Part shown: piece after piece, positions 14,154-18,780 of the stretch | Layout: each line of letters opens with the position of its first letter | How positions within the stretch are numbered: the first letter of the stretch is position 1 | Virus record (IMG/VR): IMGVR_UViG_3300028394_002659 | DNA from: a virus | Direction: 5' to 3' (one strand) | DNA: 64,000 nucleotides | Notes under the pieces: model-generated | Databases searched by the model: none | What the model saw: the letters and a program-made list of their open reading frames with translations, nothing else | What the model was told of the DNA's origin: nothing | Program-made: the position numbers and the translations under genes

Positions 14154-15284
14154 TTATTCACCTATACAGAAGGGTTTGCTGTAGATTGGTGCCCCGGTAT
14201 CTTTTCCAATCATACTGTTGATTGGGTTGATACTGGTTTCTACCAGATGGTTGCAGAAGTCTTTTTCTAATAATAAATTTTTAATGCCTTTTACATAAAG
14301 ATTAGCCACGTCATTGTGCTTCTTTAGCAAAACATCTAATCCAAGATCAAATCCACAAGAAAGTTCGCCATCAATGCCATCAACATTCACGGGGGCCAAT
14401 TCAAATTTGGATTCGGCGCCTTTTTGTGCAAAACTTGCGCCAGCAAATACTTCATTTTGTCTCGATAAGTTTTTTTGCCATATGCTATACGTAGCACTTG
14501 CGATGTTTTTAAATTTGGAACCATCGGGATCTAACCTGGCCTTGCCTGTATTTGCACTCATACGAAGTTTGAGTATTTTTTTAATCATATGACTTTGTTT
14601 GAGTGCCAACATAGGGTCAGTAAAAAAACATTCAATGTTTTCAAAATTCATTGTGCTCAACAAGGTTCTTGCATCATGGCATGAATAATATTTGTTATCT
14701 TTTTGGAATACTCTAGGTTGTTCGTGTCCAGTAATCAAACACCAGGTTGAACCACCGAACTGGTCAGCACAATAGTCCCACATTACAGAGTCCGTGGTTC
14801 CCATGGCAAATTTAGGGATCATTGAAATATTTTGAAAGATCCAATCTTCTCCTGTTACAATTTGTTGTTTGGCCGCAGGATTAAAACGTTCTTTTACAGT
14901 AATTTTGGTCAGTGGGTCATGATGGTTGTTTTTTAGCCAATCCACATATTGTGAATTATTCCAGGGCTCGTACTTGTCGTTGACCCAAATTACAATTTCA
15001 TCAATGTGTAAATTATTGCGTTTGAACACATTGTAGATTGTGTTACTATCTGTACCGCCACTCCACGACAGCATCACATGTTCATATTTGTTTCTTAAAT
15101 TACACGCATGCTGATCCATCAGTTGATCCAAGGACTCAGCAGGGTCTTGTAACCAATTTAGTTGGTCATTCTGTTGGTCGTGACAAACAAACTCAATAGG
15201 AGTTTTGCTTATAAATGCCTCGTATTTTGCAAGTATATGATTGAAAATTATTTTGCCATTAACACGGAAATAGATAGAGGGCAT
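14154..15284 (-). CDS. PP-loop ATP pyrophosphatase family protein, paralog of 18832-19947
   Basis: WSGGTDS; start moved to MPSIYF so it does not overlap the tRNA. Confidence 0.75.
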   Translation of the reverse strand: MPSIYFRVNGKIIFNHILAKYEAFISKTPIEFVCHDQQNDQLNWLQDPAESLDQLMDQHACNLRNKYEHVMLSWSGGTDSNTIYNVFKRNNLHIDEIVIWVNDKYEPWNNSQYVDWLKNNHHDPLTKITVKERFNPAAKQQIVTGEDWIFQNISMIPKFAMGTTDSVMWDYCADQFGGSTWCLITGHEQPRVFQKDNKYYSCHDARTLLSTMNFENIECFFTDPMLALKQSHMIKKILKLRMSANTGKARLDPDGSKFKNIASATYSIWQKNLSRQNEVFAGASFAQKGAESKFELAPVNVDGIDGELSCGFDLGLDVLLKKHNDVANLYVKGIKNLLLEKDFCNHLVETSINPINSMIGKDTGAPIYSKPFCIGE

Positions 15285-15300: not shown

Positions 15301-15374
15301 TGGATGCGGGGGACAGATTCGAACTGCCGATGCACCTGGCTTATGAGACCGGTGTGGTGACCGCCCTCCCCGCG
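15301..15374 (-). tRNA. Atypical initiator-like tRNA(CAT) with reduced D-arm
   Basis: C1:A72 mismatch, CGCGGGG acceptor, loop CTCATAA, TTCGAAT, CCA. Confidence 0.7.
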
Positions 15375-15383
15375 GTATATTTA

Positions 15384-15623
15384 ATGCTCTGCGTCCCCCG
15401 GCGGTAATTATAGTGTATCAGAAATTTCGTCAAGTTGCCCCAACTAGTCTATTCATCACTTACACCCTCCACCCGCTTCCCGACAGGGACCGTTCTCGTA
15501 TTGCTAACGCCGGTTAGGTTGGACCGCTGATTGCTCAGTGAAACTTTGCTGTTTCAGAACCACCCGTGTGTGTCATCACACTTCTCATCGTCTGGGTCAG
15601 ACTATCCAGTGACGCTGGAACGT
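15384..15623 (-). ncRNA. Large multi-stem structured RNA E (about 240 nt), unknown function
   Basis: GC-rich non-coding interval with several hairpins (GTGTG/CACAC, TGAAAC/GTTTCA, CTGA-GCAA-TCAG, CTAAC/GTTAG). Confidence 0.6.
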
Positions 15624-15629
15624 AGGGGA

Positions 15630-15688
15630 GAGGCCACGGTTGCAGGATCTAGTGCTCCGAAGAGGAAGTGTCCAGGCGGTGTGGCCTC
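15630..15688 (-). ncRNA. Small structured RNA G
   Basis: GAGGCCAC/GTGGCCTC closing stem with internal cUUCGg hairpin, just 3' of tRNA-Asp. Confidence 0.45.
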
Positions 15689-15693
15689 AAACT

Positions 15694-15769
15694 TGGCGGT
15701 CTTAGGGGGTAACGATCCCCACTCTTACGGCGTGACAAGCCGTCGTGCGTCCATGAACACTTTAAGACC
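15694..15769 (-). tRNA. tRNA-Asp(GTC), non-canonical (A8:U14, A54:U58)
   Basis: Loop TTGTCAC; T-loop ATCGTTA; CCA. Confidence 0.87.
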
Positions 15770-15772
15770 AAA

Positions 15773-15925
15773 TTTTTATAGTCAAGCACCGAGAATGCCA
15801 ATTTAGGAGTCCGGTGCTTCCGTTCCAAAGCCGATGCAGTTATATCAGGATCAGTCGCCGGCCGCTGTGACCCGAATAGTGTATGCGTCCATACACGATA
15901 CCTTATCGATGCTTGACTATAAAAA
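15773..15925 (-). ncRNA. Structured RNA C (20-bp closing stem), unknown function
   Basis: TTTTTATAGTCAAGCATCGA pairs with TCGGTGCTTGACTATAAAAA; internal GTGTATG-GACG-CATACAC hairpin. Confidence 0.65.
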
Positions 15926-15928
15926 CAA

Positions 15929-16306: not shown

Positions 16307-16374
16307 AAAAAAGAAAACCCTCCGAAGCGGAGGGTCTTTGTTAGTAGTACTTTTGTATTACAGACAAAGCCCCC
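16307..16374 (-). terminator. Attenuator 2: terminator (16307-16339) with competing antiterminator arm (16364-16374)
   Basis: ACCCTCCG-CTT-CGGAGGGT + U-rich tail; GGGGGCTTTGT in the last leader codons pairs with ACAAAGACCCTC (11 bp, one bulge). Confidence 0.75.
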
Positions 16375-16441: not shown

Positions 16442-16470
16442 ATTATATATGACAAGTGAATAAAAGTCAA
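16442..16470 (-). promoter_or_regulatory. sigma70-type promoter TTGACT-N17-TATAAT for leader 2
   Basis: Consensus hexamers. Confidence 0.8.
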
Positions 16471-16701: not shown

Positions 16702-17595
16702 TCATTTCTTAGTCAATAGTTTTACTACCTGTTGATACTCACGCTCAATATCACGTGCAAACTCATCGGGTGTTTGTTTTCGGGGAACTCCAGCATGTAC
16801 CACAGTGAGAATTTGTTTTTGCACTTCTTCGTTGGCTCTAGCACTTTCTAGCATGTTGTACAAGCGATCACGTGTGTCTTTGGGGGTTCCCGGTGGCGCC
16901 CAGAACCCAGTCCAGCCTTCTTGGCTGATATTGTACCCAAGTTCCACAAGACTTTTTATACCATTACGTCCCTTTGGGGTTAGCACTGCCAGGCCGTTTA
17001 GTTCTCCAGTGGCAACTCGATCCTCCAACAAGAAAGTAACAGTGGTAACTTCGATACTCTTGTTCATCAATGCCAACATGGCCGCATTGTCACCGTTGTA
17101 GTTCACCATGATGAGATTGGGATTGTTGCCCAGCAATTCTTCAAGTGCAATTCTGGTAATAGCGCCATTGTTGCCCACAGCCACAGTGCGTGTTTTCAAT
17201 GCAGACTTCAGTTGCTCGACTGTGCGGATGTCGGAGTCTTTGCGACTGACTAGCATCTGGCCGTTTGTGGCACCACGCATGAGTGGCACAATCTTTGTCA
17301 TGATTTCGTGGGCCGCGGGGTTACTGGCAGAATTGTAAACCACTGCACTGCTACCGGTATACATCACAGTGTTGCCGTCGGGCTTGGCAGCCATCAACTC
17401 CTGCATGCCAACTAGGCCTTCGGCGCCAGGTTTGTTGACTACTATAGCCTCAACGCCCTGGCGTGCCAATTCCTTGGCATACACACGTGCCGCAAGGTCA
17501 GTGTTGCCCCCGGCCGCATAGGTAACAATAATTTTCAATGGTTCTGCCGCATGAGCAGAAGCCACAAGTAATAATGAGAGTAAAAGTTTTTTCAT
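16702..17595 (-). CDS. Bug/TctC tripartite tricarboxylate transporter substrate-binding protein
   Basis: Signal peptide; IIVTYAAGGNTDLAAR, NKPGAEG, PDGNT, WTGFWAPPGTP. Confidence 0.9.
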   Translation of the reverse strand: MKKLLLSLLLVASAHAAEPLKIIVTYAAGGNTDLAARVYAKELARQGVEAIVVNKPGAEGLVGMQELMAAKPDGNTVMYTGSSAVVYNSASNPAAHEIMTKIVPLMRGATNGQMLVSRKDSDIRTVEQLKSALKTRTVAVGNNGAITRIALEELLGNNPNLIMVNYNGDNAAMLALMNKSIEVTTVTFLLEDRVATGELNGLAVLTPKGRNGIKSLVELGYNISQEGWTGFWAPPGTPKDTRDRLYNMLESARANEEVQKQILTVVHAGVPRKQTPDEFARDIEREYQQVVKLLTKK

Positions 17596-18290: not shown

Positions 18291-18307
18291 GAGAAGTTGA
18301 AAATAGG

Positions 18308-18565
18308 AGATAGGTTTATTCTGTTACGAGGAAAACCTATCAAAACCCTAGGCTACAATCAAGCGGCCAATGCGAACTGTGAGTCGTTAGCGGTTACTTT
18401 TGTTTAGTTTTTACGACTATCGCTGTCGTGCTGTCCACTTCAATACTCCTGACCCAATCGATCCTGTGTCATCCCCACCTAAATATACCTCATACACTTA
18501 GGTGGAGATGCCGGGCACTGCCCCCGGGTCTTGAATCCATTTTTATCGGCTTCATACAGCAATAA
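18308..18565 (-). ncRNA. ssrA: Two-piece (circularly permuted) tmRNA, tag ANDSQFALAA
   Basis: Acceptor piece first (T-arm CCGGG-GGCAGTG-CCCGG, CATCTCC-A-CC), hairpin spacer, then GGGGATG 5' end at 18476 (G3:U70); tag frame 18391-18359; promoter 18571-18599. Confidence 0.9.
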
Positions 18566-18600
18566 CTTACAGTATATATTTATACAGGTTGTTTGTCAAC

Positions 18601-18780
18601 CTATTTGGTACTCACATGACATGCGGCCACAATCTGTTTGTTTTGTGCCCGGAATTCTTCACGTTTTTGAACTCGGGCTTGCTCGCATTCTGCCTGAGTT
18701 TTGAACTTGGCCTGTTCGCCATACTCAGGCACCGGTCCTAAGACACTAAAACTCAACACCCAGATCAGAGTCCGGCTCAT
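18601..18780 (-). CDS. small secreted/membrane-anchored protein (59 aa)
   Basis: Manual translation MSRTLIWVLSFSVLGPVPEYGEQAKFKTQAECEQAR...VAACHVSTK. Confidence 0.55.
   Translation of the reverse strand: MSRTLIWVLSFSVLGPVPEYGEQAKFKTQAECEQARVQKREEFRAQNKQIVAACHVSTK

Follow-up and report, generated by a model that had tools for sequence, protein, structure and literature searches.

What kind of gene, if any, occupies the 240 nucleotides that separate two tRNA genes in the array of an uncultured giant lake phage? The window analysed here, a stretch of 64,000 nucleotides, comes from the IMG/VR record IMGVR_UViG_3300028394_002659, which spans 148.9 kb and is estimated to be only 43% complete, thus implying a giant phage. 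It holds an array of 25 tRNA genes on the minus strand (ARAGORN), and the genes near the interval in question all lie on that strand. An earlier note, made from the letters alone, had proposed a large multi-helix non-coding RNA in a GC-rich interval with no credible ORF, between tRNA-Asp and an initiator-like tRNA. The setting proved to be as described: the conserved RNA, which we call RNA-A (15384-15623, minus strand, ~240 nt; w12-w251, where w is 15635 minus the window coordinate), lies between the upstream tRNA-Asp(GUC), whose CCA is encoded (15694-15769, minus strand, ARAGORN), and the downstream initiator-like tRNA(CAU) (15304-15374, minus strand), which starts 9 nt past the tail of RNA-A. 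G+C content is 0.53 as against ~0.40 in the flanks, the only ORFs found mechanically encode 30-91 aa, and relatives carry swapped hairpins and indels whose lengths are not divisible by three. The minimum free energy is no better than that of shuffled sequences (z = +0.67 for the minus and -0.06 for the plus strand), so that the evidence for RNA-A is evolutionary, not thermodynamic.

Both flanking tRNAs are unusual. The initiator-like tRNA(CAU), which is missed by ARAGORN and reaches only a sub-threshold 19 bits with the Rfam tRNA model, is conserved in several relatives, among them L002, the first that was found; it has a shortened D arm and a mismatch at 1:72 (C-A in the window, A-A in L002). 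The tRNA-Asp(GUC) falls under the Rfam tRNA threshold and has an unusual T arm (loop AUCGUUA); an unannotated copy, 82% identical, is present in Ralstonia phage RSP15 (L003, 1501-1578).

The search for relatives drew on protein, word and pattern similarity. L002 was reached through a neighbouring protein; here the stretch comprising tRNA-Glu, spacer, tRNA-Asp, spacer and tRNA(CAU) is 96% identical to the window while the adjacent protein is just 82% identical, and the differences cluster at hairpin tips, where they take the form of compensatory swaps. Scans for exact words from conserved segments added 17 viral contigs and 52 real metagenome contigs, and a scan with a pattern of the 5' domain gave at least 120 viral contigs. 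At least ~127 distinct members were recovered in all from viral and metagenome contigs. A covariance model, R1 (38 sequences, 266 positions, 54 pairs), matched 99 + 21 loci, each of them once over the full length, with scores of 85-300 bits, the window reaching 300 bits; beyond the window, full-length matches of 85-296 bits occur in ~113 loci, with incomplete copies down to 61 bits. In the family alignment conservation starts at 15623 and stops at 15384, to the base where the earlier note had set the ends. A single copy is present in every one of five genomes measuring 262-345 kb (completeness 92-99% for four of them), and the near-complete carriers are phage genomes of 320-345 kb with one copy apiece. 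The source is an uncultured giant lake phage, and the family is one of giant freshwater phages. Among cultured phages in GenBank, blastn matched the flanking tRNAs alone, from which it follows that no cultured GenBank phage carries RNA-A. The pattern scan of one genome per GTDB species returned ten matches, one of them real: L197, a 23-kb contig (NZ_JBBAKG010000090.1) binned with a Haliscomenobacter MAG. Its gene order (tRNA/tmRNA/tRNA-Glu/tRNA-Asp) is that of the window and its copy of RNA-A scores 296 bits, and on these grounds we read it as probably mis-binned phage DNA. The tmRNA of L197 (2244-2649) encodes the tag peptide ANDEQFALAA.

Whether these sequences share a fold was judged by covariation in 89 distinct sequences over the 54 model pairs, with 500 shuffles. 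Standard pairs fill 97.6% of cells as against 76.9% in shuffles, 46 of the 54 pairs show changes on both sides, and none of the 500 shuffles reaches the observed pairing values; sliding the partners by 1-3 columns lowers pairing to 33-51%. The earlier note had staked its proposal on structural conservation among related phages, which is very strong by these measures, and its large, multi-helix, pseudoknotted non-coding RNA is supported by the covariation. Many pairs in the model are G-U, and the RNA has the same orientation as the flanking tRNAs; for both reasons it is assigned to the minus strand. The comparative evidence indicates that RNA-A is a real single-copy gene of a structured-RNA family, read on the tRNA strand. 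No description of it was found in Rfam 15 or in the literature searched, and searches of the window and nine family loci against Rfam, at gathering and at permissive thresholds (E up to 10), gave tRNAs, tmRNA and chance-level matches only: the family belongs to no catalogued RNA family.

That there is no RNA gene here, the conserved letters being a DNA promoter (TTGACG...TATAAT) or a small ORF, is scarcely credible. The TATAAT hexamer is nearly invariant and in the window TTGACG stands 15 bp upstream of it, but most members lack the -35-like hexamer, the would-be spacer covaries as a helix, and a promoter scan calls no site at RNA-A; nor is any small ORF conserved. The TTGACG-15-TATAAT reading, which the compensatory changes contradict, was therefore rejected, and we read the TATAAT-like hexamer, located in an internal loop at 15405-15411, as RNA structure.

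If RNA-A is a structured RNA, what does it look like? The earlier note had counted at least six hairpins, one with a GCAA tetraloop; the family fold contains at least eight, two with GCAA loops, and nearly all of them covary. The 5' domain (w12-125; all coordinates of RNA-A refer to the minus strand) begins with short hairpins, H1, H2 and H3, whose stems all covary. H1 (15605-15619) has changes on both sides in five of five pairs. H2 (15590-15602) presents an invariant ACC(C) loop on a covarying stem (C-G 56, G-C 30; G-C 63, C-G 16, A-U 8). It is followed by a purine-rich linker, GAUGAGAA (15582-15589), which is nearly invariant in alignments A4 and A5 and for which no pairing partner was identified, and by H3 (15566-15581), with a loop of the UGAC/UGAU type and a hypervariable stem in which all five pairs covary, a single position showing as many as five pair types. 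In each of the 29 loop combinations seen, the H1 and H3 loops are complementary to one another, and at least five loop classes switch together (GUCA/UGAC, AUCA/UGAU, UAACG/CGUUA, UGAU/AUUA and ACA/UGU), so this covariation predicts with confidence that a kissing contact between H1 and H3 knots the 5' domain. A further leader-loop pair, G14-C21, is partly consistent with the alignment (G-C 53, G-U 46, others 28) and is tentatively proposed.

Contacts of this kind need not be made within one molecule, and the nearest precedents lie in phages. ROOL and GOLLD, both large and pseudoknotted, come from phages and prophages, where they often adjoin tRNA islands; neither has a known protein partner or function, and contacts in them that covariation had suggested to be "tertiary" proved to be intermolecular bridges (PMC12286853). 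RNA-A shares with them a pseudoknotted fold, a phage genome, the neighbourhood of tRNA genes (phage tRNA islands being the common niche) and the outcome of the search for a protein partner, which found none. It could then be the small protomer of an RNA-only homo-oligomer, held together by loop-loop and loop-strand contacts between copies, since covariation in RNA-A cannot separate cis from trans. We regard such a multimer, here a candidate only, as rather unlikely. At 240 nt, RNA-A is far below ROOL (~580 nt) and GOLLD (~800 nt or more), to whose Rfam models it gives no match; its loops do not switch between palindromic, self-complementary forms; and by a geometric estimate the 8-nt linker together with H2 could allow H1 and H3 to kiss within one molecule.

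The second contact of the 5' domain involves a G-rich strand between H3 and H5, tract 1 (GGGUGGUU, 15558-15565), which carries two GGU motifs. Both the H2 loop and the loop of the distal hairpin in the H5 arm contain an invariant ACC. Wherever w73 has C in place of U, GCC has replaced ACC in the H5 loop and the H2 loop is longer by a G (12 distinct sequences, which may stem from one event). Because these three sites change together, we propose that tract 1 pairs with at least one of the ACC loops, and probably with both, in a register that the data do not fix. The H5 arm itself (15510-15557) consists of a closing stem, two optional inserted hairpins that are absent in short members (15540-15555, and 15527-15538 with a GCAA loop) and the distal hairpin with the ACC loop (15512-15525); closing and distal pairs covary. 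The earlier note had paired both of its GGGUGG tracts with the 3' ACCGCC. The second of these regions does take part in such a pairing, by way of the preceding GCGG (helix P-b, below), whereas the first tract pairs instead with hairpin loops. Two other pairings were considered for this part of the RNA and set aside: a P2/P7-like helix of UAGUCU (15599-15604) with AGACUA (15445-15450), in which the first segment covaries within H2 and the second is constant, and a P4-like pairing of the purine-rich linker with the UUUCUGAU segment, for which the kink-turn described below is favoured by covariation and conserved columns.

Such a strand invites comparison with catalytic RNAs that act on tRNA. RNase P and T-box RNAs read the 3' ends of tRNAs through pairing strands, and the G-rich/ACC pairing of RNA-A recalls this recognition of CCA; like RNase P RNA, RNA-A is a structured RNA associated with tRNA genes, and we also take it to resemble conserved RNase P regions locally in sequence. 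The conserved purine-rich junctions in the knotted core, and a conservation that starts 1-5 nt past the upstream CCA with no conserved bases upstream, would likewise fit a new ribozyme, for instance one that cuts itself at its 5' edge and in this way completes the upstream tRNA at its 3' end, or one that processes pre-tRNAs in trans. Still, many copies follow no tRNA, and no Rfam ribozyme family was matched even at E up to 10, so that we hold a ribozyme to be quite unlikely; less likely again is its more specific form, in which the knotted 5' domain would be the core of a new class of large ribozymes, cutting at its own 5' edge or in pre-tRNAs in trans, with the G-rich strands reading ACC/CCA ends as part of the phage's own maturation of tRNA ends. 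Known classes are not represented. The Rfam models of RNase P (bacterial A and B, archaeal, type T) gave no match in the window or in nine other family loci, whether the gathering score or an E of up to 10 was applied, and R1 reached at most 5 bits on E. coli rnpB. A topology with P1 and P4 of the RNase P type is excluded, since the 3' end of RNA-A pairs with the middle of the molecule (helix P-a) and not with the 5' end, which is free, and there is no P4-type pseudoknot. A group I intron was rejected for want of any Rfam intron match, and RNA-A is not an intron, because the flanking tRNAs are whole and differ among phages. The absence of RNase P and group I/II intron signatures reported in the earlier note is thus upheld.

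The 3' domain starts with H6 (15497-15509), a hairpin whose 7-nt loop contains GCAA and whose stem covaries (C-G 76, U-A 49 at one pair). The last base of its loop (15500) forms a lone pair with 15493, four positions past the stem, and this pair (w135-w142) is U-A in 102 and C-G in 22 sequences with no exception. Two long-range helices follow. P-a joins 15486-15492 (w143-149) to 15392-15397 (w238-243), and all six modelled pairs covary; in some relatives its sequence is wholly different with complementarity kept. P-b joins 15473-15479, which includes a 2-nt bulge, to 15400-15404 (C-G 102, U-A 12, A-U 7). By covariation, the 3' domain is closed by P-a and P-b. This disposes of the idea that the two ends of the RNA pair with one another, which is no part of the conserved fold: the 5' segment proposed for it forms the covarying local hairpin H2, with its loop in the pseudoknot, and the 3' segment pairs internally with 15486-15492, to which it is complementary even in divergent relatives. 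Within P-b lies an asymmetric internal loop of nearly invariant columns, with AUAAUUA on the 3' side (15405-15411) facing GUGGAG (15467-15472).

Beyond this loop, an arm at 15412-15466 comprises a 6-bp stem, a 3-nt bulge, tandem G.A/A.G pairs, a U.U pair and then Watson-Crick pairs, with RUGAUGA as box C, CUGA as box D and a variable distal hairpin (15433-15445); the stem (helix 13) covaries heavily, and the bulge, G-A, U and G columns are conserved. These features identify the arm as a consensus box C/D-type kink-turn, like those of archaeal and eukaryotic C/D RNAs and of U4 snRNA, where L7Ae and 15.5K bind: as there, a Watson-Crick stem, a 3-nt bulge and tandem G.A pairs are combined with RUGAUGA and CUGA. 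Its presence accounts for the weak matches to C/D snoRNAs that Rfam places exactly on 15412-15466. The likeness to box C/D guide RNAs extends to the position of boxes C and D beside a terminal stem and ends there, as RNA-A has neither C'/D' boxes nor a guide segment of 10-21 nt; between its boxes is only the variable hairpin, which changes in sequence and length. The motif is kept in ~70 of the 89 distinct sequences, while other members have in its place a straight tandem G.A helix, a stem capped by a tetraloop or a mere loop on P-b. Since natural members thus exist that lack the kink-turn, in contrast to box C/D RNAs, we consider the arm an accessory and place the core in the 5' domain and the P-a/P-b junction. 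Genes for L7Ae, Nop5/Nop and fibrillarin were sought in the record of the window and in five large member genomes, and none was found; a weak Nop match turned out to be an unrelated acidic protein. The molecule ends in a conserved single-stranded tail, CAGAGCAU (15384-15391), present as GCAGAGCA in 76 of 117 sequences, and in one subfamily it is preceded by an optional 5' extension hairpin with an 8-bp closing stem (15628-15688), the tip of which has a UUCG loop in the window and a GCAA loop in L002.

A globular, pseudoknotted fold with a kink-turn is typical of riboswitch aptamers, and in some members a run of U follows the tail, which raises the question of whether RNA-A is a riboswitch or attenuator that governs read-through into downstream tRNAs or genes. 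We think this very unlikely. The U-run is not universal, and both a riboswitch leader and a T-box leader are argued against by the lack of a conserved terminator/anti-terminator alternative and of a constant downstream gene, the genes that follow being heterogeneous; the T-box leader, which has no Rfam T-box match either, was rejected. An independent gene fits better than a leader, given that the neighbours vary and that some copies adjoin ORFs.

The flanks also bear on how such a gene could be expressed. The conserved 5' end lies 1-5 nt past an upstream tRNA of the same strand in 65 of 126 distinct loci, and in 47 of 117 a downstream tRNA starts 2-17 nt past the tail. The identities of these tRNAs vary among phages. 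With about half of the copies directly adjoining tRNAs, RNA-A is probably a stable RNA in its own right that tRNA processing cuts out; with about half lacking a direct tRNA neighbour on a given side, other nucleases, a promoter or a terminator must set some of the ends. There is a precedent in phage T4, whose RNAC and RNAD are stable RNAs of the tRNA cluster, freed by tRNA maturation, with unknown roles (PMC3014915). In the T4 annotation, rnaC (species 1) and rnaD (species 2) measure 139 and 119 nt and adjoin tRNA genes on the same strand, as RNA-A does in its cluster. RNA-A, however, is about twice as long, is knotted and has a kink-turn, and there is no detectable homology: with filters off, R1 reached at most 7 bits in the tRNA region of T4 that includes both genes (70000-72500).

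The same flanks could be taken to mean that RNA-A has no independent life and serves in cis, as a spacer that aids the folding, insulation or processing of adjacent tRNAs or protects their precursor. This we regard as improbable, if less so than catalysis or gene control. Such a role would suit the roughly half of loci in which tRNAs lie within a few bases on either side, and other hairpin-closed structured spacers occur in the same arrays. A spacer, on the other hand, would hardly be expected in a single copy per genome amid whole arrays of tRNAs (25 genes in the window), beside tRNAs that differ from phage to phage and in places beside ORFs, and a knotted fold with many near-invariant positions exceeds what a spacer needs. 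The single copy, the varying neighbours and this excess of structure lead us to prefer a product that acts in trans over a processing aid in cis.

The reading that we favour, with a probability of roughly 0.45, is therefore that of a stand-alone structured RNA of ~240 nt, which would be released by tRNA processing and act in trans as a scaffold or decoy for a partner from translation or tRNA metabolism. On this model RNA-A would be transcribed as part of the precursor of the tRNA array and set free by the maturation enzymes of the neighbouring tRNAs, with RNase P making its cut where the downstream tRNA begins and the 3'-end maturation of the upstream tRNA freeing the 5' side of RNA-A. Once released, the RNA might bind a protein or RNA partner as a compact scaffold or decoy; the 5' domain, invariant and knotted, would form its working surface together with the internal loop of P-b, and the kink-turn arm would be a dispensable module for folding or protein docking. 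The role as scaffold or decoy is suggested by architecture and genomic context.

The surroundings of RNA-A contain several further elements. A second conserved structured RNA (15770-15928, minus strand) lies between tRNA-Glu and tRNA-Asp and shows compensatory changes relative to L002; its closing stem of 21 bp is a likely target of RNase III. In 27 of 126 family loci its CCUGAUAUAAC-type motif is met again on the same strand, on one side of RNA-A or the other. A third structured element, seen in many relatives, begins right past the AGAGCA tail, directly 3' of RNA-A, and has a closing stem of ~13 bp (L165, L173, L175, L190, L109, L142 and L143). Upstream of tRNA-Glu is a near-consensus sigma-70 promoter, TTGACT-17-TATAAT (16442-16470, minus strand), with a strong hairpin resembling an intrinsic terminator ~100 nt past it (16314-16338, minus strand). 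The phage also encodes a permuted tmRNA (18298-18613, minus strand). Directly past the tRNA(CAU), an ORF of 376 aa (14154-15284, minus strand), 82% identical in L002, contains an SGGxDS motif of PP-loop-like appearance and matches no Pfam family. By the tRNA array there is also a gene for a secreted solute-binding protein of the TctC/Bug family (16702-17595, minus strand; Pfam TctC, 84 bits), which may be an auxiliary metabolic gene and may hint at a betaproteobacterial host.

The present analysis contributes several observations on the family: the exact match of the window to its conserved span, the covariation of the kissing loops class by class, the exceptionless w135-w142 pair, the co-variation of tract 1 at three sites, the dispensability of the kink-turn arm in natural variants, the statistics of flanking distances and the negative tests against rnaC/rnaD and rnpB. 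RNA-A is also a convenient object of study, as a size of 200-300 nt suits chemical probing, crystallography and cryo-EM, natural minimal variants delimit the essential core, and the covarying tertiary contacts provide a useful test case for the prediction of RNA structure in three dimensions.

The large tRNA arrays, the tmRNA and the other translation genes of giant phages are generally seen as a means of rebuilding parts of the host's translation apparatus. RNA-A, which well over a hundred phage lineages have kept amid their tRNAs in a single, strongly constrained copy, is very likely part of this translation programme. A new functional class of RNA would be added if it turned out to be a catalyst, to assemble with itself or to act as a decoy against host defences that target tRNA; otherwise it joins RNAC and RNAD of T4, ROOL and GOLLD, and marks phage tRNA islands as a hot spot of unexplained structured RNAs.
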